NCBI GenBank assembly: GCA_040384805.1
Contig: JAZKIP010000010.1
Span: forward strand, 29,545-79,984
Direction of reading: 5' to 3'
DNA length: 50,440 bases
From: Patescibacteria group bacterium
Lineage (GTDB): Bacteria > Patescibacteriota > Minisyncoccia > Phycocordibacterales > UBA9973
Shown here: positions 6,148 through 47,768 of the stretch, piece by piece
Layout of the letters: each line of letters starts with the position of its first letter
Numbering within the stretch: position 1 is the first letter of the stretch
Position numbers and translations under genes: made by a program
Notes under the pieces: generated by a model
The model's database searches: none
The model's input: only the letters and a program-made list of their open reading frames with translations
What the model was told of the DNA's origin: nothing

Positions 6148-6450
6148 ATGTCAATCAAATCATTTTTATTGAAAAAGGCTCTTCAGCTCAAAGGTGTATC
6201 ATCAGATCAGGCTGATAAGATCAGCAAGGAGCTGTCTGAAAACCCTCAACTTGCCGCAAGTCTCAAAGCTCTTGAATCAAACAAGGAAATAAAGGACCTT
6301 TTTGAAAAAATTCAGAAAGAAATTGCGGAGAAAAAGAAGGGAGGCTTAGGCGATGAATACGCTGCAGTCTTAGTCATGGGGAAATATAAGGCCGATATCA
6401 TGAAGCATCGCGAGGCTCTCGCTCCGCTCTTGGCTTTAATGCAGAAATAA
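6148..6450 (+). CDS. hypothetical small helical protein
   Basis: 100-aa ORF. Its stop lies 1 nt before the orphaned ychF start at 6452. Confidence 0.5.
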   Translation: MSIKSFLLKKALQLKGVSSDQADKISKELSENPQLAASLKALESNKEIKDLFEKIQKEIAEKKKGGLGDEYAAVLVMGKYKADIMKHREALAPLLALMQK

Positions 6451-6729: not shown

Positions 6730-9700
6730 ATGGTAGTTGATGTTAACTGGAATAATTTTAGAGCAAAATTCAACCTTCAAGAAGAGGTCGCTTTTGAACG
6801 ATTCTGTTATCTTTTATTCTGTAAAGAGTTTAACAAAAATTTAGGTATTTTTAGATTCAAGAATCATGCTGGTATTGAAACTAACCCCGTAGAACAGGGT
6901 AGCCTAGTTATAGGTTGGCAAGCAAAGTTTTATACTACAGCGTTATCACAGCATACAGCTGATTTTAAAGAATCAATTGATACGACTAAAGAAAGGCATC
7001 CAGAAGTAAATAAAATTCTCTTTTATACGAATCAAGAATTTGGACAGGATAAAAAGAAGACAGATCCAAAATATAAAAAAGATATCGAAGCTCATGCAAA
7101 ATCAAAAGGAATTGAAATTGAATGGAGAACAGGAAGTTATTTTGAATCATCATTTGTTTGTGAAGAAAATTCCAGCATTGCCCAACATTTCTTTAGTCTT
7201 AAAATAGGTATCATTGACTCAATTATTGAGCTTCAGAAATATACTGAGTTAGTATTACAACCTATCCGTTCTGAAATTCCTTTTGGAGAAGATGTAATCA
7301 AGCTTGATCGTTCTTCTGTTGTCGGTGGTATCAGAGATACAGTTCAAAATTTTTCCATTGCTGTTTTAAGTGGTGGTGCTGGGGTTGGTAAAACTGCAGT
7401 TGTTAAAGATCTTTACGAAACAGTTAAAGACTCAGCACCTCTTTTTGTCTTTAAGGTGACACAGTTTAAAGATACTTCTCATATAAATCAACTTTTTAAA
7501 AATTACGGGGAAATTACTGCTACTGAATTTATTACCGAACATAAGGATATTAACGAAAAGTATGTAGTTTTTGATTCTGCTGAGAGGCTTTCAGAGATTG
7601 AAGATCAAGACGTATTTAGAATGTTTCTATCTGATTTGGTAGAAAATGGATGGAATATTATTTTTACAGTACGGCACAACTATCTCGACGATCTCCGGTT
7701 TCAATTGCGAGAATTTTACGGAGCAAATTTCGCATCTCTAAACATTCCTTTTCTCTCTGCCGAAGAAGTGGAAAAAATTGCTAAAGAACACAAATTTAAG
7801 CTTCCAAAAAATGATAGGCTAGTAAGCTTGCTATCGACTCCGCTTTACCTGAGTGAATACTTACAGGATTATACAGAGATAAAATCGGATATTAGCTATG
7901 CTGATTTTCGAGAGATTGTATGGAAAAAGCAAATACAAAATTCTAGTTATCAAGCAAATAATTTACATAGACGTAGAGAAGAATGTTTTCTAAAGATCGC
8001 TAAACAGCGAGCAAATGAAGGTGGCTTTTTTGTTAAAACTCAAGAATCAGATCAAGAAGCGCTCCAAAAGCTAGAAGTGAGTGAAATTATTAAATTTGAC
8101 CCGAATGCTGGTGGTTACTTCATAACACATGATGTTTATGAAGAATGGGCGCTAGATATGTTAATTGAAAGGTCTTTTAATACTGCTCCTGACTATCAAA
8201 CTTTTTATCAGGAAATTGGAAGTTCACTCCCGATTCGACGTGCCTTTAGAGTTTGGTTGTCTGATAAATTATTTGCAAATGATGATAAGGCGAAGAAGTT
8301 GATTGAATTCAGTATTCAGGATTCAAGTGTGCAAAATCATTGGAAGGATGAAGTCTTGGTTTCTGTACTTCTTTCTGATTACTCAAAGATTTTTTTTGAA
8401 CTTTTTGAAGAAGAATTACTAAAAGAGCCTGAGCGATCAGTTTCAGTCAAAAGCTCTTCTAAAGTCATTACAGTTGTTGATATTGACTATAAGTTTGAGC
8501 AAAGACTTCTCCATAGAGTGCTTTTTTTACTAAGAATTGCTTGTAAAACTGTAGACGAAGACCTTCTAAAACGTTTAGGTTTAACGCGTGCGGGTGCGTA
8601 TTCTTTGAAAACTATATTTACAACTCCAAAAGGTAGCGGTTGGGATTCCGTGATTGCTTTTATCAATAAGAACAAGAATAAACTTAAACTTAAGTACATG
8701 AATGCCATTCTTCCAGTGCTCGATGATTGGAATCGAGGGCATAAGCAAGGAGCTACAACAAAACACGCAAGCCAGATCGCGTTGTTTTATTACAACACTC
8801 TCACTGCTCACAAAGATTTTTATTTCAGTTCACGGGACAGTTCCAAAGATCAAATTATTAGAACGATTCTTAATGGATCTAGTGAAATAAAAAAAGAATT
8901 AGCAAAAATTATAGATAAGATTGTCGCTACAGGAGATACTACTCATCGGAGTAGGTATTATGAATTAGTAAAAACGATTCTCTCATCAATTCTAGATAGT
9001 ATGGAGATTGCTAGGCATCTTCCAAAAGAAGTTATAAAACTTGCAAATCTTTTCTGGTTCTATACACCTCCAAAGGATAGATATCCATATTCAGATTATC
9101 GAAACGATATAGAACAATATTTTGATCTTGCGGGAGGTCATCTTGAGTATTATCCAGCTAGTGCTTTTCAGACTCCGATTGGGACACTTTTACAGGTTGC
9201 CCCTCAAGAAACAGTTAATTTTATTATATCCTTTACGAATAAGTCTATTGAATATTTTTCCAAATCAGAACTTGGTGATGAAGCAGAAGAAATTGATGTT
9301 GTGATTGATGACTCTGGTGCTGTAGTAAAGCAATATATTGGACATAGGATTTGGAATACTTATCGCGGTACGCAAGTGGTTCCACCATTATTGGAATCTA
9401 TCCATATGGCTTTGGAAAGTTGGTTGCTTAATATAGCGAAAACTTGGGATTCAGAGGTTGTAGAGAAGTGGTGTTTGTACCTCATTAAGAATTCTCATTC
9501 GTCATCTATTACCGCAATCGTAGTTAGTACTGTTCTTGCTGAACCCTCAAAATTATTCAATGTCGCAAAGATACTTTTCCGCACGAAAGATCTTTTCTTT
9601 TTTGATTCTGCAAGAATGCAACTTGATATGACACATGCAAAGTTTTCTTATTCGATGGCTCACGATCCTACAGAGATATTTAAAAATGAACGTCTCCAGA

Positions 9701-11565
9701 CTTGTGAAGATAAACATCGGAATCATTCATTAGAAAATCAGGTTCTTAATTACCAATTGTTTGCTACAGAAGGTGAGAGTGAGGAGGTTACAAAAGGTAG
9801 ACAAGAGGCTATTTGGGAAATACTTGATAAGTATTATTCAGAGTTACCTGATAAGTCTAAAGAAACTGATAACGATAAGACATGGAGACTTTGCTTAGCA
9901 AGGATGGATCGTCGGAAAATGAAAATAGCTACTGAAAAGAAGGATGATCAAGTTCTCATTAGTTTTAATCCAGAAATTGACCCTGAATTGAAGCAATATA
10001 GCGAAGATGCACTGGCAAAAAATTCAGAGGCAATGAAATATTTACCATTGCAATTATGGTCTCGTAATAAGTTTGAAAAAAATGACGACGCAAAGAAATA
10101 TCCTCAATACGAGGATGATCATACTTTGGCGTTATCTGAGACTAAAATTATTATTAAACAATTGGCTTATGAGAAAGATGAAGAAAGTCAATTTAGGCTT
10201 TTCTATCGCTCTGTTCCATCGTATGTTTGCGCAGTTCTTCTGCGAGATTATTCAGAAAAATTGAAGCCCAATGAAGCAAAGTTTTGCAAGAATGTTGTGA
10301 TTGACTATGCGTCTATGCCCTTACGAAGTGGTTTTCGATATCAAGTTGGTGATGGGCTAGATGTATCAGTAAATATCCTTCCATTGTTGATTAAAAAATT
10401 TCCTAAGGATGCCCAGAAAATCAAAGAAATTCTTTTACTTATACTTTTCGACTCATATCCAATTGGAATGAATCAGCGCGTTTCTGGGTATGCAGTGTCA
10501 GCTATTATGCAACATTTGTGGCAAGAAAGTCCTGATGATGCGAATGCTCTACTCTATGGATATTTATTATTGCAACCAAAATTCGACAAAATACAGGAAA
10601 TTCTTAGAACAGAAAATCGAAAAAATAATGTATATGATTTCTCTAAATCTATCCTCCTAAAGCGTTTCAAGAAAGAATGTAAGAGTGAAATTCTTAAAGC
10701 TGTATCTAATCAACTTTCGTATAGCGATGTACAAAATATATCCGACATAGAAGCTGGTACATTAGTGACTGCTTTTCTGTTGGTGCCATTAAAAACTACT
10801 GACGAAAATCATAAGAAGTTTTTACGAGACATGAGTCCTGTTCTCACAAATTCATTTAAAAGTGAAAAAAGGGAAGAGCATCTTGATTATGTACTGGAGC
10901 ACCACTTTTTAAATAAATTTGCTTATTTTGTGCTTAATTCTCCAAAAGAAGAGATTGAAGTATATGTAAAACCCTTCACAGAACTCATTGGAGATTTCAG
11001 GCGAACTAAAGATGCTGCAGATGTATTGGAGGCATTCGTTATTGCGGAGGATGCTATAAATCAATATGAAGAATTTTGGACTGTATGGCGAGTATTCTAT
11101 CCAAAGATAGTTGAACTCTGTTCTGATGAATATCGTCTTAGACATTCCGAAAGTATAGTTTATAAATATCTATTGGCATTAGAGTGGAAAAAGGAGGCAA
11201 AAGAATGGAGATCATTAAAAGATAGAGAAAAAACTTTCTTTAAAAAGGTGTCAGAAGAGATAGGAGGCAACCCTGCTGTTCTATACTCGATTGCAAAACT
11301 TCTGAATGATATTGGAAGCAATTTTGCCTTTGATGGTATCTCTTGGGTTAGTGCCATGTTGCAAAAAAATCCAGATCTTTCTCGTAAAGAGTTGGAAGTT
11401 AATACTGTCTATTATCTAGAAAACCTTGTAAGGAGTTATATTCTTAAAAATCGTCAAAAAGTTAAAACTGATCAACAATTAAAAAAACAAATTCTTGTTA
11501 TTTTAGATTTTCTCTTAGAAAAAGCCTCAGTAACTGCCTACTTATTGAGAGAAGATATTTTATAA
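6730..11565 (+). CDS. 1611-aa protein: N-terminal Mrr-like PD-(D/E)xK nuclease-like domain + P-loop NTPase (STAND/AAA-like) + about 1300-aa helical C-terminal region
   Basis: The N-terminus FERFCYLLF...HAGIET...VIGWQAKFY resembles the Mrr catalytic pattern (FE..L...DGGID...QxK). Walker A is LSGGAGVGKTAVV (nt 7372-7395) and Walker B-like is YVVFDSAERL. The remainder has no motif I recognise. Confidence 0.85.
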   Translation: MVVDVNWNNFRAKFNLQEEVAFERFCYLLFCKEFNKNLGIFRFKNHAGIETNPVEQGSLVIGWQAKFYTTALSQHTADFKESIDTTKERHPEVNKILFYTNQEFGQDKKKTDPKYKKDIEAHAKSKGIEIEWRTGSYFESSFVCEENSSIAQHFFSLKIGIIDSIIELQKYTELVLQPIRSEIPFGEDVIKLDRSSVVGGIRDTVQNFSIAVLSGGAGVGKTAVVKDLYETVKDSAPLFVFKVTQFKDTSHINQLFKNYGEITATEFITEHKDINEKYVVFDSAERLSEIEDQDVFRMFLSDLVENGWNIIFTVRHNYLDDLRFQLREFYGANFASLNIPFLSAEEVEKIAKEHKFKLPKNDRLVSLLSTPLYLSEYLQDYTEIKSDISYADFREIVWKKQIQNSSYQANNLHRRREECFLKIAKQRANEGGFFVKTQESDQEALQKLEVSEIIKFDPNAGGYFITHDVYEEWALDMLIERSFNTAPDYQTFYQEIGSSLPIRRAFRVWLSDKLFANDDKAKKLIEFSIQDSSVQNHWKDEVLVSVLLSDYSKIFFELFEEELLKEPERSVSVKSSSKVITVVDIDYKFEQRLLHRVLFLLRIACKTVDEDLLKRLGLTRAGAYSLKTIFTTPKGSGWDSVIAFINKNKNKLKLKYMNAILPVLDDWNRGHKQGATTKHASQIALFYYNTLTAHKDFYFSSRDSSKDQIIRTILNGSSEIKKELAKIIDKIVATGDTTHRSRYYELVKTILSSILDSMEIARHLPKEVIKLANLFWFYTPPKDRYPYSDYRNDIEQYFDLAGGHLEYYPASAFQTPIGTLLQVAPQETVNFIISFTNKSIEYFSKSELGDEAEEIDVVIDDSGAVVKQYIGHRIWNTYRGTQVVPPLLESIHMALESWLLNIAKTWDSEVVEKWCLYLIKNSHSSSITAIVVSTVLAEPSKLFNVAKILFRTKDLFFFDSARMQLDMTHAKFSYSMAHDPTEIFKNERLQTCEDKHRNHSLENQVLNYQLFATEGESEEVTKGRQEAIWEILDKYYSELPDKSKETDNDKTWRLCLARMDRRKMKIATEKKDDQVLISFNPEIDPELKQYSEDALAKNSEAMKYLPLQLWSRNKFEKNDDAKKYPQYEDDHTLALSETKIIIKQLAYEKDEESQFRLFYRSVPSYVCAVLLRDYSEKLKPNEAKFCKNVVIDYASMPLRSGFRYQVGDGLDVSVNILPLLIKKFPKDAQKIKEILLLILFDSYPIGMNQRVSGYAVSAIMQHLWQESPDDANALLYGYLLLQPKFDKIQEILRTENRKNNVYDFSKSILLKRFKKECKSEILKAVSNQLSYSDVQNISDIEAGTLVTAFLLVPLKTTDENHKKFLRDMSPVLTNSFKSEKREEHLDYVLEHHFLNKFAYFVLNSPKEEIEVYVKPFTELIGDFRRTKDAADVLEAFVIAEDAINQYEEFWTVWRVFYPKIVELCSDEYRLRHSESIVYKYLLALEWKKEAKEWRSLKDREKTFFKKVSEEIGGNPAVLYSIAKLLNDIGSNFAFDGISWVSAMLQKNPDLSRKELEVNTVYYLENLVRSYILKNRQKVKTDQQLKKQILVILDFLLEKASVTAYLLREDIL

Positions 11566-11569
11566 AGTA

Positions 11570-12646
11570 ATGACTTGTCTCAAACCACATCAACACTACT
11601 CAGATTTGTACGATCGCCATACCGTAGAGAAATGTCGTTGGTGGGAAGAACATTCACCTAACCTTGAAGAACTTCGAGAAAAGGCGAAAGAAAAAGACGA
11701 GGAGGTAGACGAAAAAGAATTGATCCGAGCTGCGAATACATATACCAACCTTCACTTTTTCTTTCTCACAGGTGATCGCTACATTAATAAAGAGAAAACG
11801 ATTAGTGAATGGATGCAACGCGATGAGGAAAGCGATAAGTTCTTTGAAAGCGTTAGAGAACCAGAAAATATCAACTGTTTGACTTGCGGTCGCTTGATGT
11901 TTATTAGTTCACATCATAATCAGCAAGGATTTAAAGATGAGAAAGATAGAGTTCTCTTTATGTACGATTGTCCTTTAGAACATATTCCACGTCGAGCTTT
12001 CTATGATGACGGTGAGGAATTTCGACGGGAGAAGCCAACTTGTCCTAAATGTCACGCTGAAGTGGTTGAAGAAGACAAAACTACTGATGAGAAATTCATC
12101 ACTATCGTTACTTGTCCGAATTGTAACTACACAAATATCTCAGAGATTGAACGCACTGTTGAAAAAGAAGATCCTCACTTTGAACGCGATCGAGCAAGGT
12201 TTTGCCTCGATGAGAAGAGGGGTCAAGAGTTCATCGAGGGTAAACAAAACATAGAAGGACTTGCTCGTCTGATGGATGAGATTAAGGAGAAAGAAAAGAA
12301 TAAAGATAAGTATGATGCGGTAGCCAAGCTCAAAAAGTTAAAGATTATAGAGCTTGAGGAATTACTTATACCTATTGTTGAGAAAGTAGAATATATACGC
12401 TTTCAACTCAAACAGCCGGAGATTAATAAGGATGTAGTAGTACCTTTTGTTGTCTATGAAAAGAAAGCTGATAGAGGGGAATATGACAGTAAGAAGACTT
12501 TAGAGAAATTGATCAAGGGTGCTTTAGCTGATACCAACTGGAGACTTATGAGCGATGGAGTAAGTTATAGGCTGGGGATGCTTGAGGGTCGACTGCGAGC
12601 CTATGAAAGAGAGGAAGATTTACTTAAGCTTGTGAGTCAAAAATGA
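11570..12646 (+). CDS. zinc-ribbon protein (several CxxC pairs) with a coiled-coil C-terminus, hypothetical
   Basis: 358 aa. CLTCGR...CPLEH...CPKCHAE...CPNCNY. It starts 4 nt after the giant gene. Confidence 0.75.
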   Translation: MTCLKPHQHYSDLYDRHTVEKCRWWEEHSPNLEELREKAKEKDEEVDEKELIRAANTYTNLHFFFLTGDRYINKEKTISEWMQRDEESDKFFESVREPENINCLTCGRLMFISSHHNQQGFKDEKDRVLFMYDCPLEHIPRRAFYDDGEEFRREKPTCPKCHAEVVEEDKTTDEKFITIVTCPNCNYTNISEIERTVEKEDPHFERDRARFCLDEKRGQEFIEGKQNIEGLARLMDEIKEKEKNKDKYDAVAKLKKLKIIELEELLIPIVEKVEYIRFQLKQPEINKDVVVPFVVYEKKADRGEYDSKKTLEKLIKGALADTNWRLMSDGVSYRLGMLEGRLRAYEREEDLLKLVSQK

Positions 12647-12659
12647 TAAAATTAAACCA

Positions 12660-13529
12660 ATGACAAAAGAACAAGCAGGCGGATATATCTTTGAGGCAGC
12701 TATATGGGAACTTTTAAAGAAATCTGGGTATATAACTGTAAAAGGTGACAAGTTACGAGGCAGAGGTAGTGAACATCAAATAGATGCTGTAGGGTACTGG
12801 AAAATTCCAATTCCTTTTGTTTTTCCTGTAAGGTTAATGCTTGAAGGTAAGTTTAAAGAGACAACTGACTTATCATCTGTTCGCAGTTTTCTTGGTGCAC
12901 ATATTGATATTAAAGAAAATTATTTCGTTCGGGGGAAAAGTCGGCCTTCACGATATACAGATGTAGCTTGTATTTGTTGTAAAGGCTCATTTACACAACC
13001 TGCGCAAGATTATGCATGGGCGCATAATATTTTTCTGGTCTCGTTTAGAGGAGTCCAAAGTCTTCGAGGTATTATTGAAAACATTGAGCAATTCTTGAAT
13101 GAAGCGAACTTAGAAGTTAGCAGAGAAGATCTTATTCTTTCATTTCAAAATCAGTCAGGAGTGGTAAATCAGAACTTAATTCTTATTGTTGGAATGTTAG
13201 ATGGCAAGTACCCAATTATGCTTTCTGCGGATAAAGAATTTACTAAATTTTTAGAACGTCGAAGTTTAGAGACTGGGGATGTTTTGCGTGCAGTAAAGAC
13301 TGAAAGGTTTACTGGCGAGAGTGAGACAGTATACCGAATTGGCTTCATTGAAAATGAGAGGATTCCTGTTGAATTTTCCTTACCGAACGGAATTGCAACA
13401 AAGTTAAGTCGTCATATAGATCAAACTCATTATGGTCGGAAAATATTTGATATTGAGATTCCGTCTGTTCAATCATCTAAAGGTAAAGAAACGAGAAGAA
13501 TTTTTAAACTTAATGTTATTCTCGGGTAA
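12660..13529 (+). CDS. restriction-endonuclease-like (Mrr-type PD-(D/E)xK) protein
   Basis: 289 aa. GYIFEAAIWELLKKSGY...EHQIDAVGY...RLMLEGKFKE gives the FE..L..GY / D / ExK order typical of Mrr_cat nucleases. It starts 13 nt after the previous gene. Confidence 0.7.
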   Translation: MTKEQAGGYIFEAAIWELLKKSGYITVKGDKLRGRGSEHQIDAVGYWKIPIPFVFPVRLMLEGKFKETTDLSSVRSFLGAHIDIKENYFVRGKSRPSRYTDVACICCKGSFTQPAQDYAWAHNIFLVSFRGVQSLRGIIENIEQFLNEANLEVSREDLILSFQNQSGVVNQNLILIVGMLDGKYPIMLSADKEFTKFLERRSLETGDVLRAVKTERFTGESETVYRIGFIENERIPVEFSLPNGIATKLSRHIDQTHYGRKIFDIEIPSVQSSKGKETRRIFKLNVILG

Positions 13530-13909: not shown

Positions 13910-13969
13910 GCCTTTATTTTTACCAGAAATATGGTAGTATAAAAGCACAACTTAATAAAAAAAGTAGCC

Positions 13970-14110
13970 TAAACCTTTAGTAATAAAGGCATGGTGAAAG
14001 CTCAAGTCCTGCAAAGACATAAAAAACCGATCATGGGTTTGTCTTTGCAGGCCGTGTCCGAAAGGATACGAGGAGCGAAAGCTTCTATCCCGTGGTCGGC
14101 TTTTTGTTTG
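13970..14110 (+). ncRNA. structured RNA leader, copy A (motif shared with 42530-42682)
   Basis: P1 is CCTTTA-GTAA-TAAAGG (13974-13989). P2 is CCTGCAAAGAC/GTCTTTGCAGG (14008-18/14041-51). P3 is GTCC-GAAA-GGAT (14056-67). It ends in a T-rich tail. Copy B keeps the same architecture with compensatory changes. Confidence 0.55.
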
Positions 14111-15511: not shown

Positions 15512-17581
15512 ATGTTAAATCAAAAAGAATTTTTATCTCTGTTTTCAAGCTGTAGGTTTAGGTATATACACGAAGTCAACAAAGAAGTTGTTCAAGGCAC
15601 TAACGCATTAAGTTCGTCGTGGAATAGTAAAGGTTACGGGGTCTATTTTACAGTTAACGGATTCCCACCTGCTGGTGCAGCGACTATTGCAAATCTTGCA
15701 TGTCTTAATTGCAACTTTATTGATATAGATATAAAAAAAGACGGAATTTCTCAACAAGAAAGAAGCTTGTTGATACAGGAGAGAATCATGCGAGCATATG
15801 AAGAAGGTATTTTAATGCCTACGATTATCGTCAGAACAAAAAATGGTGCTCATTTGTACTGGCTTTATACAGGATCTATTTCATCTCCTTCGAATTCTCA
15901 AATACTGCAATGGCAGAGTGTTCAAAATCGGCTAGTAAAATATTTTGATGGTGATAAAAATGCTAAAGACATAGCAAGAGTTTTGCGGGTGCCTTTTACA
16001 AATCATTTGAAAGACCCATCAGATCCTTATTTTATAACAATCGATAGTTATAAACCCGAAAATTTGTACTCTCTTGAAGAGTTAAACGAAGCGCTTCCTA
16101 AATATGAGGATGAAGTACTAGTTGAAAATAAAATATCAGCTACAGAATTATTATTAAAAGGTATTCCTGTTGGGCAAGGGTTACGGCATGGAGCGCTAGC
16201 GCAAATGGCAGGTTTATTTTTGAGAGGGGCTGATACTCCAGAAAAAATTGCTATTGCAAGAAAAAACTATTATGACTGGGATAAAGGAATCGTAGGGTCG
16301 CCCGAAAAATTCGAGGATAGAAAAAAAGAACTAGATAATACCTTTGACGGTATTTTGAAGTTAAACCTTAAAAAAACTGTAAATAAATTTCAGCAACCTG
16401 AAAAAATAATACTTAAAAAAGCAATAACTAGGTGTTTTTCTGATATACAATCTGTTGCTATTAACTGGTTATGGCCGAATAGAATAGCAATAGGAAAATT
16501 GACTTTAATTGCCGGTGATCCCGGCCTTGGAAAAAGTTTAGTAACTGCCACATTAGCAGCTAATGTTTCAAAAAGTTACGCATGGCCCATTGATAATTTT
16601 AGCGCTCCTCTAGGGGATGTAATTTTACTGTCGGCTGAAGATGATCCAGCTGATACTATTAAGCCACGTCTTGAAGCTATTGGAGCCGATTGTTCTCGGA
16701 TACATATTTTAGAAGCTGTTGAAGTAAAAATGGAAGAGGGGATGGAGGAAAGAATGTTTTCTCTTGAAAGCGATCTAAAAATTCTTGAAGAGTTGTTGGA
16801 TACTTTGCCAGAGTGCAAATTAGTCATCATTGATCCAATATCTGCTTATCTTGGAGATACAGATAGTAATAAAAATGCCGAAGTAAGAGGTTTACTTGCT
16901 CGATTATCAAAATTGGCTGGAAAATATAAATCAGCTTTTGTATTAGTAAGTCATCTAAATAAAAATACTGGGACAAGTGCGATGTATCGTACTAGCGGAT
17001 CATTGGCATTTGTTGCTGCTGTGCGAAGTGCTTTCATGGTCACAAAAGATAAGGATAATCCCGAACGTAGATTATTCATGCCCATAAAAAGCAATATAGC
17101 AAAAGATACAACTGGATATGCTTATTCAGTAGTAGAGGCCGAAAATAAAGCACCAATGATTGTTTGGGAAAATGAAGTTGTTGATATTCCAGTTGAAGAG
17201 GCTCTTGCTCCTGTTGAGTCTCCAGAAGAACATAGTGCCACTGATGAAGCAAAAGTATTTTTGATCTATTCTCTAAAGAATGGGCCGAGAAGAGCAGATG
17301 AAGTACAAAAAGAAGCTAGGTCGGCTGGCATTACTCCTAAACCTCTAAGATCAGCGAAAGAAAAATTAGGAATAAAGTCACAGAAAACATCAAACTTTAC
17401 AGGTGGTTTTTGGGTGTGGCAATTACCCGAAGATGCCCTCACAGCAGAAGAAGCCCTATTAAAAAGGGAGGGCATGTTGGATGATCAAGGGCATCTTCGA
17501 AATAGTTTTAACAAACTAGACAACTTTGTAGAGGATATAAAGTCGGAACCAGAGATCAAAGACGATTCATTGGATTTATAA
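15512..17581 (+). CDS. element replicase: primase-like N-terminal domain + RecA-like (AAA_25/RepA-type) ATPase
   Basis: 689 aa. The N-terminus has VRTKNGAHLYW and RVLRVPFTNH (primase-like). The C-terminus has LIAGDPGLGKS (Walker A), VIIDPISAYLG (Walker B) and VSHLNK. Confidence 0.75.
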   Translation: MLNQKEFLSLFSSCRFRYIHEVNKEVVQGTNALSSSWNSKGYGVYFTVNGFPPAGAATIANLACLNCNFIDIDIKKDGISQQERSLLIQERIMRAYEEGILMPTIIVRTKNGAHLYWLYTGSISSPSNSQILQWQSVQNRLVKYFDGDKNAKDIARVLRVPFTNHLKDPSDPYFITIDSYKPENLYSLEELNEALPKYEDEVLVENKISATELLLKGIPVGQGLRHGALAQMAGLFLRGADTPEKIAIARKNYYDWDKGIVGSPEKFEDRKKELDNTFDGILKLNLKKTVNKFQQPEKIILKKAITRCFSDIQSVAINWLWPNRIAIGKLTLIAGDPGLGKSLVTATLAANVSKSYAWPIDNFSAPLGDVILLSAEDDPADTIKPRLEAIGADCSRIHILEAVEVKMEEGMEERMFSLESDLKILEELLDTLPECKLVIIDPISAYLGDTDSNKNAEVRGLLARLSKLAGKYKSAFVLVSHLNKNTGTSAMYRTSGSLAFVAAVRSAFMVTKDKDNPERRLFMPIKSNIAKDTTGYAYSVVEAENKAPMIVWENEVVDIPVEEALAPVESPEEHSATDEAKVFLIYSLKNGPRRADEVQKEARSAGITPKPLRSAKEKLGIKSQKTSNFTGGFWVWQLPEDALTAEEALLKREGMLDDQGHLRNSFNKLDNFVEDIKSEPEIKDDSLDL

Positions 17582-17984: not shown

Positions 17985-19646
17985 ATGATAGAAGAAATTC
18001 AAAAACAAAATAAGTTGATTGCGGTTTACGGAAGAGTATCAACTTCAAATCAAGAAAATGAAGGTACTATTGAGACCCAGCTTTCGGCTGTGAGAGAATT
18101 TGCTAAAGCACATGGTTATACCATAGTAAAAGAATACTTAGACGAGGGCTGGAGTGGTGATACTCTCGTAAGGCCATCTCTCGATCAGCTTCGTATAGAT
18201 GCAAAAAAGAAAGGTTGGGAAGCAGTCTTGATTTTTGACCCTGATAGATTAGCAAGACGTGGAGCATGGCAAGAAGTCGTAATAGAAGAATTAAAAGAAC
18301 TAGAGATTGATGTTCTCTTTGTTACTATTCCACAACCTAAAACAGATGAAGATAAGATTATGTATAAAATGAGAGGAGTATTCACCGAGTACGAGAGAAT
18401 GAAGATCAAAGAAAGATTTAGACTTGGAAAAGTTCGCAAAGCCAATGAAGGTCATATTATCTCTACAGAAGGGCCTTATGGTTATAATTTCATAACTAAG
18501 AAAGGGAAAAAAGGCGATGCAGATTTTCTAGAAAGTCATTATGAGATTAACGAATATGAATCACAAATTGTTAAAAACCTTTTTTCATGGGTAGCAGATG
18601 AAGGGCTAACCTTGCGTGCTATTGTTCGGAGACTTCAAGAATTAAATATACAGCCACGTAAGAGTAAAAGAGGTGTTTGGAATACGAGTACATTAAGCAC
18701 TCTTTTCAAAAACAAAACTTATATCGGAGAAGGTCACTATGGGGCCTCTTATGCCGTAGTACCAACAAATCCTTTGAAAAAAGAGGGATATAGAAAGATT
18801 AAAAAAACCAGTAGAAAGATGAAGCCAGAGAATGAATGGATCATTATTCCCACTCCTAAAATTATAGATGAAGATATCTTCATGAAAGTCGGACAACGTT
18901 TAAGATCAAATTTTGAACTTTCGTCTAGAAACACAAAGAACGAGTATCTGCTTAGTGGTAAAATATGGTGTGATTGTGGCAAAAGGCGTGCAGGAGAAGG
19001 CCCACAGCAGGGCAAGCATCTTTATTATCGGTGTACTGATCGAGTAAAGAGTTTTCCTCTACAACCTGAATGTAAAGAAAAAGGCTTAAATGCTAAGATC
19101 CTCGATCCACTAGTATGGCAAGGAGTTGCAAATCTTATGAGTTCTCCTGAATTACTTCTTAAGCAAGCAGAGCGTTGGCTAAATAATCAGAAAATGGGAA
19201 ACAAAACTTCAACAATAAATATTGAAGAAACAAAAAAAGAAATTGCTAAATTGAAAGATCAAGAGGATCGTTACACTAAAGCGTATGGAGCTGGCGTTAT
19301 TACCATAGACCAACTAAAAGAATACATCGCACCACTGAAAGAAAAAATATCATTGTTCAATAGTCAAATCAATAAAGCTCGATTAGAGACAGAACACATT
19401 GATGAAAGGCAATTACCAAAATTAAATGAAATAGAAGTATTTGCAGAAAAAGCATCAGAATTCTTAAAAGACTTGAAATTTAATGCTAAAAAGGCCATAA
19501 TCAACAATATTGTTGATAAAGTGGTCGGAACCAGAGAGAAATTACAAGTATATGGATATATTCCAGTAACATCATCAGATATTAATGTCTTCACTGAGTA
19601 TCGGCATCGTAGGACTTCCCAACGTCGGCAAATCGACGCTTTTTAA
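17985..19646 (+). CDS. large serine recombinase (integrase)
   Basis: 553 aa. The resolvase catalytic N-terminus is IAVYGRVSTSNQ...QL. A recombinase domain follows, then a zinc ribbon (CDCGKRR...YYRC) and a coiled coil. The last about 20 codons overlap the ychF start. Confidence 0.9.
   Translation: MIEEIQKQNKLIAVYGRVSTSNQENEGTIETQLSAVREFAKAHGYTIVKEYLDEGWSGDTLVRPSLDQLRIDAKKKGWEAVLIFDPDRLARRGAWQEVVIEELKELEIDVLFVTIPQPKTDEDKIMYKMRGVFTEYERMKIKERFRLGKVRKANEGHIISTEGPYGYNFITKKGKKGDADFLESHYEINEYESQIVKNLFSWVADEGLTLRAIVRRLQELNIQPRKSKRGVWNTSTLSTLFKNKTYIGEGHYGASYAVVPTNPLKKEGYRKIKKTSRKMKPENEWIIIPTPKIIDEDIFMKVGQRLRSNFELSSRNTKNEYLLSGKIWCDCGKRRAGEGPQQGKHLYYRCTDRVKSFPLQPECKEKGLNAKILDPLVWQGVANLMSSPELLLKQAERWLNNQKMGNKTSTINIEETKKEIAKLKDQEDRYTKAYGAGVITIDQLKEYIAPLKEKISLFNSQINKARLETEHIDERQLPKLNEIEVFAEKASEFLKDLKFNAKKAIINNIVDKVVGTREKLQVYGYIPVTSSDINVFTEYRHRRTSQRRQIDAF
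19585..19610 (+). repeat. attR-like junction: element-encoded replacement start of ychF
   Basis: ATGTCTTCACTGAGTATCGGCAT|CGTAGGACTT parallels 6452-6475. The proposed crossover dinucleotide is AT at 19606-19607. Confidence 0.6.
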
Positions 19647-20700
19647 TGCACTGACGAAAAAAGGCGTTCCCGCCGAGAATTATCCTTTCTGCACGATCGA
19701 TCCGTCAGTCGGAATTGTTCCTGTGCCTGATGAGCGCCTCTGGAAGCTTTCGGAATTCTCGAAATCCATAAAGACGATACCGGCTGTCATCGAATTCGTC
19801 GATATTGCGGGACTTGTGAAAGGGGCATCTGCGGGAGAGGGGCTTGGCAATAAATTCCTTGCCAATATCCGCGAAGTGGACGCGATTTTTGAAATGGTTA
19901 GAATATTCCCGCTTAAGACCGAGAAGGGAAATGAAATCATCCATGTCTATGGAGATATTGATCCATTGCGCGATATCGAAGTGATTAATCTTGAATTGAT
20001 CTTGGCGGATCTTGAAACTGTTACGAAAAGAAAGAATAATATCGTGCGAGATCTTAAAAAAGGCGATAAAGAGGCCGTTATTGAAGATGCTGCTCTTGAG
20101 AAACTTATGCAAGTATTTGAAAAAGGCGCGCTTGCCAATACTGTCGAATTGAATGAAAAAGAAATGGAGAAAGTGAAGATGCTCAATTTGCTGACACTCA
20201 AGCCTTTCGTGTATGGCCTCAACAAGCGAAGCGGAACGAAAAATCTCGATGAGATGAACCCGGAAGTATTTAAAGAATTAACAGACTATATAATAAGCAT
20301 GGGATCGCGCTACGTTGTTTTAGACGCCAAAATCGAAGAAGAATTAAAAGATTTCGAAGGCGAAGAAAAAGAAGTTTTCCGCAAGGAATTGGGCGGAGAC
20401 GATGACGGGATCAACAGCCTTATTTCCGAAGGATATAAGTTGCTCGGCCTTGATACGTATTTCACGACCGGGGAAGATGAGACGCGTGCATGGACTATCA
20501 AAACTGGCAGCACTGCGCCTGTTGCCGGCATGGCGATCCATACGGATTTCAAAGATAAATTTATCCGCGCGGAAGTCGTGTACTGGAAAGATCTTCTTGA
20601 TGCCGGATCATATGTCGACGCCCGATCCAAAGGCAAAGTACGGACGGAAGGGAAGGAATACATCGTTCGCGATGGGGATGTTATAGAATTCAAGATATGA
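19585..20700 (+). CDS. ychF: redox-regulated ATPase YchF (OLA1 family GTP/ATP-binding protein)
   Basis: 371 aa. IGIVGLPNVGKSTLFNALT, FCTIDP, DIAGLVKGAS, and the C-terminal TGS-like ...VRDGDVIEFKI. Confidence 0.95.
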   Translation: MSSLSIGIVGLPNVGKSTLFNALTKKGVPAENYPFCTIDPSVGIVPVPDERLWKLSEFSKSIKTIPAVIEFVDIAGLVKGASAGEGLGNKFLANIREVDAIFEMVRIFPLKTEKGNEIIHVYGDIDPLRDIEVINLELILADLETVTKRKNNIVRDLKKGDKEAVIEDAALEKLMQVFEKGALANTVELNEKEMEKVKMLNLLTLKPFVYGLNKRSGTKNLDEMNPEVFKELTDYIISMGSRYVVLDAKIEEELKDFEGEEKEVFRKELGGDDDGINSLISEGYKLLGLDTYFTTGEDETRAWTIKTGSTAPVAGMAIHTDFKDKFIRAEVVYWKDLLDAGSYVDARSKGKVRTEGKEYIVRDGDVIEFKI

Positions 20701-21440
20701 TAAAGCTTATTTCATTAAATATTGAAACGGATATTCATCATGAAAAAGTGGTGCCGTTTTTAAAACTTGAAAATCCTGACGTTGTTTGTTTGCAGGAAGT
20801 ATTTGAGAAAGATCTCTCATTGTATGAAGAAGCGCTCGGAATGAAAAGCTACTTTAAGCCGATGTCTGTTCATCCGTCTGTAAAAGATAAGGGAGCAACG
20901 AGTCATGTCGTAGGTATTGCAATTCTGACGAAATTCCCCGTCACGATGCATTATCATTATTATGCAGGCAATGAAAACAGTATCCCACACTGGGTCAGAT
21001 CTCCAGATCTTTATATTGCTCCTCACACGGCAAATCAATTAGTATTGTGGGTTGAAATGATGATAGAGGGAAAACTTTTCCGAATAGCAACCACTCATCT
21101 TCCGGTAACTCCACCTTTTGGCATCTCAACAGAGTATCAGCTTGATCAGGCACGAAAGATGCTTGAAATTCTCGCTCCGTTCGAAAGTCTCATCATCTGC
21201 GGCGATTTGAACGCTCCGCGAGGGAAAGAAACCTTTGCATTGTTCAGCGACAAATACATCGATCATGTCCCTCTTCGTTTTGATTCGAGCATCGATCCGG
21301 TGTATCACAAAAACCCTGTTCTTATCCTGATGGTTGACGGCCTTTTCAGCACGCCGGATTATGAAGTCAAAGACGTGGAACTCCGGCAGGGCCTGAGCGA
21401 TCATAAAGCTATTGTCGCGCATATTGGCAAGGTCAATTAA
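20697..21440 (+). CDS. endonuclease/exonuclease/phosphatase (EEP) family protein
   Basis: 247 aa. LISLNIE, VVCLQEV, GDLNAPRG, SDHKAI. The start overlaps the ychF stop (ATGA). Confidence 0.8.
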   Translation: MIKLISLNIETDIHHEKVVPFLKLENPDVVCLQEVFEKDLSLYEEALGMKSYFKPMSVHPSVKDKGATSHVVGIAILTKFPVTMHYHYYAGNENSIPHWVRSPDLYIAPHTANQLVLWVEMMIEGKLFRIATTHLPVTPPFGISTEYQLDQARKMLEILAPFESLIICGDLNAPRGKETFALFSDKYIDHVPLRFDSSIDPVYHKNPVLILMVDGLFSTPDYEVKDVELRQGLSDHKAIVAHIGKVN

Positions 21441-38056: not shown

Positions 38057-38129
38057 GCCGAGATAGCTCAGTTGGTAGAGCGCTCCCCTGAAGAGGGATA
38101 GGTCACCAGTTCGACTCTGGTTCTCGGCA
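38057..38129 (+). tRNA. tRNA-Phe (anticodon GAA)
   Basis: GCCGAGA-TA-GCTCAGTTGGTAGAGC-G-CTCCC-CTGAAGA-GGGAT-AGGTC-ACCAG-TTCGACT-CTGGT-TCTCGGC-A. Confidence 0.92.
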
Positions 38130-38256
38130 CAAAAAAGTTAATTAGCAACGTATTTTAGAAAATAGACGATTTTTTTAGCCAGTCCCGCCTGTAAACAGGC
38201 TCTCGGCCCTAATTCTAAAAAATACAAAATATGATCGCCGCATGTAATAAAATTAC

Positions 38257-39150
38257 ATGGATTTATTGATCTTGTGCCAGAAGTTTTGTGATTATTCCTT
38301 GTCCATAAAAGGATTCTCAAAGGTTACGGTTAGGCGCTATAGGCAAGTAATACGCTTCTATTGCAAGCAGGCAGCCATAAGCGACATCAACGAAGTAACA
38401 CAGGAGAATATACGCGCTTTGTTCTATAATGGAAGGACAGAGCGATCTTGGACGCCGAATACCTTTATTCATTACCATAAATCATTACTGGTCTTTTTCA
38501 GATGGTGTATCAAACAGGGTTATATGGAAAGTAATCCTGTACATGATATCGAAATACCCAAGCTCCATAAGAAACTGCCTCCCAAGCTAACCAGACAAGA
38601 TGCCATACGCCTTTTGGAGGTTGCTTATAACTATCCTTATAAATATAAGTTTTTAAGATATCGCAATCATGCCATATTCTCGATGTTTATCTTTACCGGC
38701 TTGCGGAAGCAGGAATTACTACATCTTAAATTTACCGATGTGGATATAGAAAATCTCTCTATCTTTGTCAGGCAAGGGAAGGGGAATAAGGATCGCATTG
38801 TGCCGATGTCATATACTCTCGCTTTGAGCCTAAAAAGGTATCTGGAGGAGAGGAAGCGGCTCCATAAGACATGTCCTGAATTTTTTACATCATTGAATCA
38901 GAATCATGGTTTTACCGAAAGCGGGCTTAGAAACCTTATTTCACAGCTTCGTGTTTCATCGGGAATATTCTTCACAGCGCATAAATTGCGACATACATTC
39001 TCTACATTGATGCTCGAAAATGGCGTTGATATCTATTCTCTAAGCAAGATGCTCGGACACTCGGATATCAAGACTACTACTATTTATCTGTATGCCAGTG
39101 CGGAACATTTGCGTGCCCAGATAGGGAAGCACCCTTTAAATGAGATTTAA
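38257..39150 (+). CDS. tyrosine recombinase / integrase (XerC/D-like)
   Basis: 297 aa. The N-terminal SAM-like domain is followed by the catalytic ...TGLRKQELLHL...HKLRHTFSTLMLENGVDIYSLSKMLGHSDIKTTTIYLY (R...HxxR...Y). Confidence 0.9.
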   Translation: MDLLILCQKFCDYSLSIKGFSKVTVRRYRQVIRFYCKQAAISDINEVTQENIRALFYNGRTERSWTPNTFIHYHKSLLVFFRWCIKQGYMESNPVHDIEIPKLHKKLPPKLTRQDAIRLLEVAYNYPYKYKFLRYRNHAIFSMFIFTGLRKQELLHLKFTDVDIENLSIFVRQGKGNKDRIVPMSYTLALSLKRYLEERKRLHKTCPEFFTSLNQNHGFTESGLRNLISQLRVSSGIFFTAHKLRHTFSTLMLENGVDIYSLSKMLGHSDIKTTTIYLYASAEHLRAQIGKHPLNEI

Positions 39151-39291: not shown

Positions 39292-41100
39292 TTAAGAGTT
39301 TTCTGCTGGTACTACATTATAGTACTTTGTGTTGTGGTGAATTGGCTTAGAATCATCTAGAACATCAAGCCCTTGTAGTCTAATGTCTTTACCCTCTAGC
39401 ATTACTATTTTGCCGTCTAGTCCTAATAATTTAAGACTTTCTCTAATTGATTTATTTCCTGCAATTTCCGATTCGACTAGATCGTCTACGGTTACCCACT
39501 TTCTAAGATTAGTCATGGTAGTAAGTATTTCTTCGTAAACCTTTTTGTTTGATTTTGCCCCATTATATTCACCGTCATAAGTAAAGAAATCATCTTTGCC
39601 ATCAATATTTATAATCACTTTAATCGGGTTCATTTTCTTATCTCCCTTTAACTTGTCTTGGCTTATAATCAAATACTGAGTATCGGTATCCTTGTCCTTT
39701 TGGGGTTCAAGACTTATGTGCCCGTGTACTGCTGCATTTATCGCACTACTTCCTCTTGTTTCTTCTGCTCCCATATTGCTCTTACCAAACCCCGATTTTT
39801 TGCGGTTATGGTGTGTAAATAGGATAGTAAATCCAGCGTTAGTTATTTTCTTAAGGTTATTCATGACCCCCTGCATGGCAGTAGAATCATTTTCTTCGGC
39901 AGAGTGAATACTGCGAAGTGAATCAAATATAATGAATTTAACTCCGCGATCTTTTCCTATGCCGATAATACTGTCTACTGTTTTTTCATCTAACTGAATT
40001 TCATTTGATACCATAAAGTGTATTGGCAAATTATCCCATTCCTTTTCTAAAATATTAAGTCTTTCTCTGATTTGTCTTGCTCGATCCTCTTCATTAATAA
40101 TGAGAACCCCTTGTTGTTTAACAGCAAGGTTCCCAAATAGTGGTTTTCCTTTGGATAAACAAATGGCAATGTAAAGTGTAAGCCAGCTTTTAAAGTTATT
40201 TGGTGCGGCACTGACCATATTTACTGTTTCGGTCTCAAAAAGCCCTTGGACTGCCCATGCGGCTTCAGGAAATTCTGCATTACTAAGTTCTTTTGCACCC
40301 ATTACTAACAGTTCTTTTTTAGTTTCAGAGGTAATTCTCTTTGACAATTCTGCTTTTACAATGGAGCGATAAATCGTATCAATTTCCGAATTTGGCAAAG
40401 GTTTTTCTGCGCCCTTATTAACTAAATGCATTAGCGGTCTTACAAATGTTTCCCAATCATCTTGTTTTAGAGTGGCTAACAGCTTTCCTGTCATTGAGGT
40501 GATGTTATTGTTTCGTGAGCCGACTAATAGGTTTAGATATGGCGATGGCTTGCTTGAACTTACTTCTTTTTGATCTTCCTTAATTTTTTCTTCAAACCAT
40601 TCAGGCAGAGGGGGAATGGGTTCACTATCATCTGGCTCTACGGCCCACCAGTAATCTTTTGCCAAGCCAATTGTTGAAGATGGCAGAAGAATATATCCAC
40701 CATCTGCTTTAATGTCTACTCCTTGTCCAAATAACTTACCATTTGTAGATTTCACATGGTAGCCGGGGTGAAGAAAGAAAAAATGCCAGCCCGCATTTCC
40801 TGTTCTTGAGTGAACAGTGTTTCCGAGAGGGAACTCATCAACAGATCGTGGATTCTCTCCCTTTGCATCAATATCCAATACTACTAAATTTGATATTTTT
40901 CCTGTAACTACGGCAGGATTTGCATCTGGCCATTTAGCCCACCATTCCTTAATTTGCTCCTCAGAGGCACTTTCTTGTTGATATTTAACCCAAGATGAAA
41001 TATATGGGGTCTTGTCCTCTTTAACAGGGATTATAGACCAACCTAATTTTTCACATTTTAATGCGGTTTCTAATTTAATATTTGTCTTTATTTCTATCAT
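39292..41100 (-). CDS. bifunctional prim-pol domain + RecA-like (AAA_25) ATPase replicase
   Basis: 602 aa. The N-terminus has GWSIIPV...NPAVVTGKISNLVVLDIDAKG...GWHFFF...VDIKADGGYILLPSS (prim-pol). The C-terminus has MVSAAPNNFKS (Walker A-like), FIIFDSLRS (Walker B) and ILFTHHNRK. Confidence 0.8.
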   Translation of the reverse strand: MIEIKTNIKLETALKCEKLGWSIIPVKEDKTPYISSWVKYQQESASEEQIKEWWAKWPDANPAVVTGKISNLVVLDIDAKGENPRSVDEFPLGNTVHSRTGNAGWHFFFLHPGYHVKSTNGKLFGQGVDIKADGGYILLPSSTIGLAKDYWWAVEPDDSEPIPPLPEWFEEKIKEDQKEVSSSKPSPYLNLLVGSRNNNITSMTGKLLATLKQDDWETFVRPLMHLVNKGAEKPLPNSEIDTIYRSIVKAELSKRITSETKKELLVMGAKELSNAEFPEAAWAVQGLFETETVNMVSAAPNNFKSWLTLYIAICLSKGKPLFGNLAVKQQGVLIINEEDRARQIRERLNILEKEWDNLPIHFMVSNEIQLDEKTVDSIIGIGKDRGVKFIIFDSLRSIHSAEENDSTAMQGVMNNLKKITNAGFTILFTHHNRKKSGFGKSNMGAEETRGSSAINAAVHGHISLEPQKDKDTDTQYLIISQDKLKGDKKMNPIKVIINIDGKDDFFTYDGEYNGAKSNKKVYEEILTTMTNLRKWVTVDDLVESEIAGNKSIRESLKLLGLDGKIVMLEGKDIRLQGLDVLDDSKPIHHNTKYYNVVPAENS

Positions 41101-42529: not shown

Positions 42530-42682
42530 AACCTAACCCTTTAGAAATAAAGGTATGGTAGTAAATCCTCCGCAACAAAGACGGTCATCTGACTGGCTCT
42601 CTGTTGCGGAGGTCTACACTTGAAAAGGTGTAGTGGCGGTCCGAAAGGATTCGCTTGCCAGTTCGGGTGACCTTTTTTGTTA
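42530..42682 (+). ncRNA. structured RNA leader, copy B (same motif as 13970-14110)
   Basis: P1 is CCTTTA-GAAA-TAAAGG (42538-53). P2 is CCTCCGCAACA/TGTTGCGGAGG (42567-77/42602-12). P3 is GTCC-GAAA-GGAT (42639-50). It ends in a T-rich tail. The P2 sequence differs from copy A but stays complementary. Confidence 0.55.
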
Positions 42683-44939: not shown

Positions 44940-45461
44940 ATGAAATTAACAGCTATTGAAAGAGCAACTCTCATAATGCTCCACAAAATACTCAAAAATC
45001 TAGAACCAGAAAATAAGAAAGAACACACAAATGCAATTGAAATCCTTGAAGATGGATATTATGAAATGTGGGAGAATGAATGTCTTGGACATCTAAGTCA
45101 GCCATTGGAGAAAGAAAAAATGAATTATGTTCATGATATTCTAGGTATGTATTGGCGACTGCAGGATTCATATAAAGACTTAAGTGATGGAGACAAAAAG
45201 AAAGTAGGAACTGAAGATACAGTCATCTTCGAAGGATTTGATGGAAATAATGAAACAGAATTATTGTCATATGCACGATTTCTTATGGAGAGATTTGATA
45301 AATGGAGTGGTGTAAAAGCCACACATGATCTTAATACTCATGCTCCAACTGGTAGAAGATATAGTGCTATGCTCGAAGCAATGCCAAGCTCAGAACTAAG
45401 ACACCTTTCTGCGGAACAGATCAATACAGTTCTTAAAGCACAATTTATAAACATTATTTAA
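44940..45461 (+). CDS. YfbU-family (UPF0304) protein
   Basis: 173 aa. ...ERATLIMLHKIL..LEP, ILEDGY, FEGFDGNNETELLSYARFLM and LSAEQINTVLKA line up with the E. coli YfbU pattern as I remember it ([20 protein letters not shown]...LSANEINQIINA). Confidence 0.65.
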   Translation: MKLTAIERATLIMLHKILKNLEPENKKEHTNAIEILEDGYYEMWENECLGHLSQPLEKEKMNYVHDILGMYWRLQDSYKDLSDGDKKKVGTEDTVIFEGFDGNNETELLSYARFLMERFDKWSGVKATHDLNTHAPTGRRYSAMLEAMPSSELRHLSAEQINTVLKAQFINII

Positions 45462-46775: not shown

Positions 46776-46784
46776 TTGCTTATT

Positions 46785-47768
46785 ATGAAAATACCATCTG
46801 ACGAGATAAAAAATATTAAAACCCTAGAGAATTTTTGTAGGTTTTTCGCTATTTCCGAAGAACAGCTTGTTCACTTTAGAAAACATAAAAATGAGTTATT
46901 TAAAGTTGCAAAAATAGGCAAAAGAAGTGGTGGGCATAGGATTATTTATCCGATAGGGGATGACGGCTATAGGAATTTCTTAAAAGCCACTGCAGAAATA
47001 CTCGATGATCATTATATGCATAATTCAAGTTCTCCGCCTCAGAGCGTACACGGTTTTCTTAGAAATAGATCAATTATTACAAATGCTCAATGTCATGTAA
47101 AGAAAAAGATACTTTTGAATTTGGATATTAAGGATTTCTTCGAGTCAATTACAAAAGATAAAATAAACGAAATATTTATAGACCTAGGCTTTAGTAAAAA
47201 CCATAGTTCAATCCTTACAGAATTTGTAACAGTTAATGATGTCTTAGCTACAGGATTTCCTTCTAGTGCCGTATTGGCTAATATAGTCTGCAAACAAATG
47301 GATTATGGTTTTGAAATACTTTGTAAAAAATATGAAGCTACATATACACGTTATGCTGACGATATATCAATATCTAGTAATATATCTATTCCCGAGAAAG
47401 AAGTTATCGTTAAGCTTCTCTGTGGTTACGGATTTGAAATAAACGATAGGAAATATAAAATATCTCCCCGTGGTGGAAATCAGTATGTTACAGGGCTAAC
47501 TGTCTGCGACGAAAGACCGAGATTATCAAGAAAGCTAAAACGATCAATACGCCTAGAACTTTACTATATTAAAAAATATGGCTCTACAGATCACTTTCTC
47601 CATAACTTAAATAGATCTATATATAGTAAATTTACTGGTATGTTATTTACATACAGCATGGGTGGATATATATCTTTTATCCACTCTATAGAACCTGAAT
47701 TGGCTAAAAAGATTAGGAAAGTTTTAAGTTATACTAAGATTAAGGCTAATTTCTTTTTAGAAGAGTAA
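46785..47768 (+). CDS. retron-type reverse transcriptase
   Basis: 327 aa. RIIYPI, SVHGFLRNRSIITNAQCH (NAxxH), LLNLDIKDFFESI, LATGFPSSAVLANI, YTRYADDISIS (YADD at 47352-47363) and QYVTGLTV (VTG). It aligns motif by motif with Ec86 RT as I remember it. Confidence 0.85.
   Translation: MKIPSDEIKNIKTLENFCRFFAISEEQLVHFRKHKNELFKVAKIGKRSGGHRIIYPIGDDGYRNFLKATAEILDDHYMHNSSSPPQSVHGFLRNRSIITNAQCHVKKKILLNLDIKDFFESITKDKINEIFIDLGFSKNHSSILTEFVTVNDVLATGFPSSAVLANIVCKQMDYGFEILCKKYEATYTRYADDISISSNISIPEKEVIVKLLCGYGFEINDRKYKISPRGGNQYVTGLTVCDERPRLSRKLKRSIRLELYYIKKYGSTDHFLHNLNRSIYSKFTGMLFTYSMGGYISFIHSIEPELAKKIRKVLSYTKIKANFFLEE

Follow-up and report, generated by a model that had tools for sequence, protein, structure and literature searches.

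We analyzed a stretch of 50,440 nucleotides (hereafter, the window) from contig JAZKIP010000010.1 of a Patescibacteria group bacterium (assembly GCA_040384805.1), in which a sequence-only reading had proposed that three adjoining genes form an undescribed immune system that joins a giant sensor-effector to a dedicated zinc-ribbon protein and a further, stand-alone nuclease. Our analysis makes it quite probable that the locus is a mosaic defense island on an integrated element, in which a lone Avs4 (gene 1), a conserved element gene that is not its partner (gene 2, hereafter G2), and an independent nuclease (gene 3) stand side by side. The proposed three-gene system was refuted on two grounds that the reading had itself named, because gene 1 falls within an already named system and because the three genes are not co-conserved.

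Gene 1, gene 3, and the joints between the three genes

At every level of sequence compared, gene 1 is a full-length ortholog of Avs4. It matched the NCBIfam equivalog model NF041815 (AVAST type 4 anti-phage nuclease Avs4) with 2039.2 bits against a cut-off of 1500, over profile positions 1-1579 of 1579 and protein residues 6-1611; it matched the PADLOC Avs4 model with 1948 bits; and it aligned with the EcAvs4 structure (PDB 8DGF, chain 8dgf_A) with 1311 bits, residues 3-1611 against 2-1587. Profile searches thus placed the giant in a named system. The motifs from which it had been recognized as an Mrr nuclease joined to a STAND sensor-effector are all present, namely the Mrr-type pattern (FERFCYLL, AGIET, and GWQAKFY, with Q64 and K66), Walker A (GGAGVGKT, at about residues 214-221), and Walker B (VVFDS). 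In the sequence alignment, GWQAKFY faces GWQSKFY of 8dgf_A, so that the catalytic QxK is kept, and the Walker A regions are aligned too, while the Pfam models NACHT and nSTAND3 matched residues 203-354, both below cut-off. Gene 1 and EcAvs4 are alike in length, in domain order (nuclease, STAND NTPase, helical sensor), and in aligning end to end; they differ in that gene 1 resides in a Patescibacteria host, in the mosaic cargo slot of an integrative element. Homologs of gene 1 number 998 proteins at E ≤ 1e-50, of which the top ones, a Patescibacteria genome among their sources, are 76-82% identical, and those at 50-65% identity come from Pseudomonadota, Legionella, Bradyrhizobium, and others.

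Avs4 is a STAND sensor that is activated by the phage portal protein and whose Mrr nuclease domains are joined in a tetramer (bioRxiv 10.64898/2026.08.25.746987). Orthology and the conserved catalytic and Walker residues suggest portal recognition, nuclease activity, and phage protection for gene 1 as well. By the mechanism published for Avs4, its C-terminal sensor would bind the phage portal, the STAND ATPase would then drive the formation of the tetramer, and the paired Mrr-type nuclease domains would cut DNA, with abortive infection as the outcome.

Three Avs4 relatives of 78-82% identity lie in similar elements, each with different neighbors. The first (locus L097) is preceded by HTH_17, D12 methyltransferase, DpnII, and N6_N4 methyltransferase genes and followed by a gene for a 165-aa protein; the second (L100/L101) is preceded by S24, methyltransferase, and HinfI genes, all divergent, and followed by a gene for a 233-aa protein; and the third (L103) is preceded by a recombinase gene, a LOOT RNA (see below), and HTH_28, methyltransferase, and HTH_3 genes, and followed by genes for proteins of 179 aa and 159 aa and by miaA. 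No relative of gene 2 or gene 3 stands beside any of them, and their downstream genes are unrelated. Avs4, judged by these neighborhoods, is a single-gene cassette that moves among varying neighbors and has no conserved partner. In blastn comparisons of the window with the Avs4-relative loci, similarity was confined to 6711/6745..11566-11569, and in comparisons with two loci of G2 relatives (L092 and L093) it started at 11578-11582 and was over by 12646, within gene 2. These breakpoints fall at gene borders, and the operon is therefore a mosaic of joined genes.

Gene 3 is most likely a separate, solitary restriction enzyme of a type IV-like (modification-dependent) kind, as predicted from its conserved residues and its structural model. 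It had been described as a PD-(D/E)xK nuclease with the motifs IDAVG and LEGK, a description that holds: E12, D42 (IDAVG), and E62-x-K64 (LEGK) are invariant in 14 sequences, and the model matched folds of the restriction endonuclease type. Foldseek returned MspJI (4f0p_A, E 5.4e-5) and the Mrr-like AF1548 (1y88, E 3.5e-4), both with probability 1.0, for a model with a mean predicted local distance difference test score (pLDDT) of 75 that is weak at residues 32-57 and 78-100. Gene 3 thus resembles the MspJI/Mrr type IV enzymes in its E...D...ExK signature, in its best fold matches, and in the presence of Mrr_cat in its relatives (on record for 9 of 13 homologs, some of these matches being marked weak or faint). 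It differs from them in that it scores below the Pfam cut-off itself (Mrr_cat, PF04471, 14.3 bits versus 21, E 0.046), in its β-rich C-terminal domain, to which no fold is assigned, and in the rarity of its family, of which 13 relatives were found. These relatives lie in a Falkowbacteria defense island, beside NucS, or beside a NERD protein, and none has Avs4 or G2 beside it. A pairing of G2 with gene 3 was considered and rejected, as no co-occurrence was found in the loci of the relatives of either. Among the open reading frames (ORFs) of the window element scanned with Pfam, there was no methyltransferase. As a modification-dependent restriction enzyme, gene 3 would add a second defense layer, unrelated to the first. 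Gene 3 would be an added member of the Mrr/MspJI class, and gene 1 lies within known Avs4.

The arrangement of the genes nevertheless invites the reading that Avs4, the zinc-ribbon protein, and the second nuclease make up a new three-component system, in which genes 2 and 3 would modulate or execute the Avs4 response. As first reported, and as the ORF coordinates confirm, all three genes lie on the plus strand with gaps of only 4 nt and 13 nt. No terminator-like hairpin was found between them, in a scan for promoters and terminators that as a whole did no better than on shuffled sequence, and each of the three carries domains that fit defense. However, no related locus was found to contain the triad, or even two of its genes together. 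The other 79 distinct G2 loci lack relatives of both Avs4 and gene 3; the 78-82% Avs4 loci do without G2 and gene 3; and the gene 3 loci do without Avs4 and G2. The nearest G2 relative (L092, 87% identity) has flanks unlike those of the window on both sides, the similarity breaks at gene borders, and Avs4 was reportedly defined and tested as a single-gene system by Gao et al. in 2020 and 2022. Multi-gene Avs systems (Avs2 with trypsin-MBL partners, Avs1 and Avs3 with accessory genes) do have a STAND sensor followed by small co-directional genes, but their partners are co-conserved with the sensor, whereas genes 2 and 3 are not. We therefore consider a three-component system very improbable.

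The G2 family and the cargo slot of its elements

G2 belongs to a large family that is almost restricted to Patescibacteria and uniform in size (∼340-400 aa). A word-indexed search returned at least 889 homologs, none with a Pfam domain, and an exhaustive profile search returned 808 clusters at 50% identity, of which 406 scored E ≤ 1e-30. The sequence-only reading had credited gene 2 with four Cys pairs and a coiled coil: the zinc ribbon and a helical or coiled segment (residues 204-253) stand, and the ligand motifs are three CxxC pairs and one C..H (C103xxC106, C134xxxH138, C158xxC161, and C182xxC185). In an alignment of 38 homologs, C103, C106, C134, C158, C161, C182, C185, and C212 are invariant, as is a C-terminal motif, TNW...YR.G...R. 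The AlphaFold (AF2) model, with a pLDDT of 86, comprises N-terminal helices, two zinc ribbons, a coiled coil, and a C-terminal α/β domain.

Searches of G2 against Pfam, NCBIfam, PADLOC, and PHROGs matched no model, the zinc-ribbon matches being sub-threshold only; a profile search against PDB sequences gave a best E of 0.05; and Foldseek of the model matched no whole protein in PDB or BFVD, only partial similarities being returned, to S24e/S6-like folds and to NrdR/Lar-type zinc ribbons at E 0.001 or worse. Five long members of 533-697 aa (P0340, P0365, P0393, P0397, and P0330) have a common C-terminal extension, with an extra CxxC...CxxC ribbon and a helix-turn-helix (HTH)-like tail, which hints at DNA binding. 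A check of the long variants for informative fusions revealed only these additions and an AAA_18 domain in one long member, and no Pfam model covers the extension. Our best guess, held with low confidence, is that G2 is a zinc-dependent nucleic-acid-binding protein that serves the maintenance or regulation of its element.

Two other identities for G2 were rejected. As a single-copy core gene it would be out of place, with only 149 relatives in 185,579 species genomes, two copies in some of these, and flanks that vary on both sides; and as a gene of full prophages it would sit beside a right arm without structural genes, with one of 2.9 million IMG/VR viral contigs carrying it.

To describe the setting of G2, we compared 80 distinct loci, including that of the window, and counted hallmark genes within 10 kb. 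Upstream of G2 and on the opposite strand there is a recurrent arm that encodes a ParB-N6/N4 DNA methyltransferase (phrog_498, 2e-88), a small terminase (phrog_4044), a large serine recombinase, and often a large terminase (phrog_38, 1.5e-81), and in some loci a CI/LexA-like S24 repressor gene runs in the same direction as G2. At least one hallmark gene is present in 53 of the 80 loci (ParB-methyltransferase in 44, small terminase in 31, large serine recombinase in 31, large terminase in 16, and repressor in 10). The usual order, as it appears from these loci, is a leftward serine integrase, LOOT, in some cases a leftward large terminase, a leftward small terminase and ParB-methyltransferase, an optional rightward S24 repressor, a rightward cargo of 0 to 4 or more genes, and finally a rightward G2. 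In 24 loci, the next six genes after G2 are mostly ordinary cellular ones (ABC transporters, FtsX, PilM, FtsH, and response regulators), with a few defense genes among them and no capsid, portal, or tail gene. We read the G2 elements as a family of compact integrative elements, apparently satellite-like or decayed prophages, with phage-type packaging genes. The median pairwise identity of G2 (43%) is close to those of the methyltransferase (39%), the large terminase (41%), and the small terminase (35%), so that its conservation is roughly on a par with theirs.

The distance between the ParB-methyltransferase gene and G2 varies from 132 nt to 8.4 kb, with 0 to 4 or more unrelated genes in between. 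The slot is occupied in 21 of 30 loci, by one to at least four genes, and empty in the other 9, where the two genes are 132-475 nt apart; G2 therefore exists without cargo. Directly upstream of G2 there is a CBASS-type cyclase gene in one locus (L001); a KAP NTPase gene, and before it genes for a methyltransferase, a Clp protease, and a ResIII enzyme, in another (L003); NotI and methyltransferase genes in a third (L005); and two ThsB-TIR genes in a fourth, whose G2 is 72% identical to that of the window (L093). Among 98 proteins encoded upstream of G2 in 42 loci, PADLOC and Pfam identified GajB/UvrD, type I restriction endonucleases, CBASS cyclases, Eco57I-type and C5 methylases, AAA_15/AAA_21, SNF2, HNH, and others. 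PADLOC families matched numbered 665 in these 98 proteins versus 183 in 142 downstream proteins, the figures being counts of families and not of matches per protein.

We propose that the left part of the window element is a small defense island of independent cassettes, probably on one transcript, and that, in compact integrative elements, G2 would be the conserved gene that bounds a cargo slot on its far side. Cargo would lie between G2 and its presumed promoter region, a position from which it would be expressed together with G2.

A gene for a small hydrophobic protein of ∼132 aa, with no family match, follows G2 in six loci (L005, at 9074-9472, and L015, L021, L046, L020, and L037); in four of the six it lies directly downstream, with a start that overlaps the G2 stop by 4 nt.

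Possible roles of G2 and comparison with known hotspots

A role in the life cycle of the element (e.g., as a recombination directionality factor or an initiator of replication or packaging), with the defense genes as mere neighbors, would also explain where G2 is found. A large serine recombinase gene lies within 10 kb of G2 in 31 of 80 loci, the window included; the few conserved genes of the compact elements are those for integrase, terminase subunits, methyltransferase, and repressor; and zinc ribbons and a coiled coil would suit the binding of DNA or protein. We nonetheless hold this role to be unlikely, given that comparisons of sequence and of fold linked G2 to no known directionality factor, primase, or initiator, that many loci have no recombinase within reach, and that a single G2 locus was found in 2.9 million viral contigs.

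Regulators of the BrxR/CapW type serve many different defense systems, and G2 could, by comparison, be a generic accessory factor, that is, a regulator, sensor, or adaptor for whatever immune genes lie upstream of it. This would account for the many different defense genes that precede G2 at very short or overlapping distances, for its strong conservation, with invariant zinc ligands and C-terminal motif, and for the extra ribbon and HTH-like tail of some members. In the nine cargo-free loci, however, G2 faces the ParB-methyltransferase directly; the cargo elsewhere includes complete, self-sufficient systems (restriction-modification pairs and Avs4); the Avs4 relatives do without G2; and no PADLOC model or fold of a known regulator was matched. 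These observations leave a generic accessory role improbable. Equally doubtful is the related proposal that G2 is a common functional partner of unrelated defense systems, for instance a zinc-ribbon regulator or adaptor that, perhaps in concert with the LOOT leader RNA, makes the expression or activity of the upstream cargo depend on the state of the element. A weaker version is likelier, and we lean somewhat towards it: G2, with LOOT, would be a so far unreported marker of a hotspot of defense cargo.

Several observations weigh against a mosaic island in which G2 is a conserved element gene, a reading that is a computational prediction throughout. The ParB-methyltransferase, small and large terminase, and S24 repressor genes were all sought in the window element and are absent from it, so that G2 must be common to different kinds of element, and it is counted as a conserved element gene here by analogy. 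Hallmark genes are absent from 27 of the 80 G2 loci, many of these on short contigs. No correlation (rho 0.01) was seen between the pairwise identities of G2 and those of the ParB-methyltransferase; this could reflect mosaicism or saturation but also weakens the notion of a single conserved element core. The defense richness of the cargo was judged from family counts, and functional coupling would also fit the very short or overlapping spacing of cargo and G2. In the window, genes 1-3 are probably co-transcribed as a single transcript, to judge only from their spacing. Lastly, the pLDDT of the gene 3 model falls below 50 at residues 32-57, around D42.

The G2 slot, with its variable and apparently defense-rich content, resembles the hotspots of P2 prophages and P4 satellites, in which conserved mobile-element genes frame a variable, defense-rich slot (Rousset et al. 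2022, PMC9122126), and P4 pairs its integrase with a primase/helicase-type gene, as does the window element. The differences lie in the Patescibacteria host, in the framing genes (ParB-methyltransferase or S24 repressor versus G2), and in the integrase, which is a serine recombinase. Moreover, G2 elements carry terminase genes while no capsid genes were seen, and they may be satellites, decayed prophages, or islands.

An Avs4 and a solitary Mrr-type nuclease on a mobile element are an ordinary finding. The by-product of the analysis is that a large, unannotated, conserved family (G2) and an orphan RNA (LOOT) both belong to compact integrative elements of Patescibacteria. CPR (candidate phyla radiation) bacteria combine tiny genomes with a high density of defense genes (PMC12259885). 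The slot beside G2 collects very different defense systems, and a conserved marker would help to mine new CPR immune systems.

LOOT RNA, the window element, and the rest of the window

The orphan LOOT RNA (RF03000) recurs in these mobile elements of Patescibacteria. An Rfam scan found two copies in the window and eight more in 16 related loci, and a covariance model built from these ten was then run on G2 and control loci. LOOT was present in 32 of 80 G2 loci (1.32 Mb) versus none of 51 Patescibacteria YchF control loci (∼0.30 Mb). Outside the window, positions of LOOT include 2569-2696 in L001, 3119-3244 in L103, and 2762-2883 in L020, with 29 further loci. A co-directional ORF lies closely 3′ of LOOT in most loci, and the family of this ORF mostly differs between loci. 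The distance from LOOT to the start of a divergent serine recombinase gene is 103-165 nt in ten loci; at other sites LOOT immediately follows G2 or heads a cargo operon. Rightward operons of the elements thus appear to have LOOT as a leader or regulatory RNA. To our knowledge, this would be the first genomic context given to LOOT.

An integrated mobile element between miaA and ychF is a fair description of ∼6.5-19.6 kb of the window (Table 1), as judged from its gene content. The claim that an integrated element in a CPR genome carries the three genes as cargo is thereby upheld: a primase/helicase-type gene and a serine recombinase gene, the latter at the right end of the element and adjoining ychF, lie between the two flanking genes, and the host is a Patescibacteria (CPR) bacterium, because the nearest YchF relatives (76-78% identity) come from Paceibacterota-type metagenome-assembled genomes. 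The G+C content of the element region is ∼35%, and a gene for a GtrA-like membrane protein also lies to the right of genes 1-3, on the ychF side. With G2, LOOT, a primase/helicase-type gene, and a serine recombinase, but no methyltransferase/terminase arm, the element is a variant of the G2 element family.

Table 1. Positions of the features discussed, numbered along the window
Feature	Position	Strand	Description
miaA	5079..6158	-	Left flank of the element
Gene 1 (Avs4)	6730..11565	+	1611 aa; Mrr-type nuclease, STAND NTPase, and long helical sensor region
Gene 2 (G2)	11570..12646	+	358 aa; conserved Patescibacteria mobile-element gene
Gene 3	12660..13529	+	289 aa; predicted stand-alone Mrr/MspJI-type PD-(D/E)xK nuclease with β-rich C-terminal domain
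LOOT RNA (RF03000), copy 1	13966..14086	+	Rfam 72.9 bits versus gathering score 46.4
Primase/helicase-type replication protein	15512..17581	+	Pfam AAA_25 1.2e-29; weak RepB_primase; PHROG primase/helicase families
Large serine recombinase (element integrase)	17985..19646	+	Pfam Resolvase 4.4e-28, Recombinase 1.4e-16, Zn_ribbon_recom 4.2e-6
ychF	19585..20700		Right flank of the element
tRNA-Phe	38057..38130		Beside the second element
Tyrosine integrase	38257..39150		Second element
Prim-Pol/AAA_25 helicase-type gene	39292..41100	-	Second element
LOOT RNA, copy 2	42530..42652		Second element
YfbU-domain protein	44940..45461		Second element
Reverse transcriptase	46776..47768		Second element

At the left border, an ORF of 100 aa at 6148-6450 shares 11 nt with miaA at its annotated TTG start and ends 279 nt before Avs4. 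It has a weak PHROG match only (E 0.0015) and could either be spurious or be the gene with which the element begins. The Avs4 element of L103 (GCA_019745315.1) also abuts miaA (12232-13140, encoding a protein 47% identical to the MiaA of the window), at the 3′ side of the gene versus the 5′ side in the window; the shared adjacency may reflect a preferred integration neighborhood or coincidence.

A second integrated element lies beside the tRNA-Phe gene within 38057-50440, a stretch of low G+C content (29-40%), and includes the second LOOT copy. Its reverse transcriptase is possibly a defense gene of the retron, DRT, or abortive infection (Abi) type. Between the two elements, positions 20000-37000 have a G+C content of 42-50%, versus ∼35% in the flanking element regions, and contain several large ORFs on the plus strand (950, 773, 561, 588, and 620 aa).

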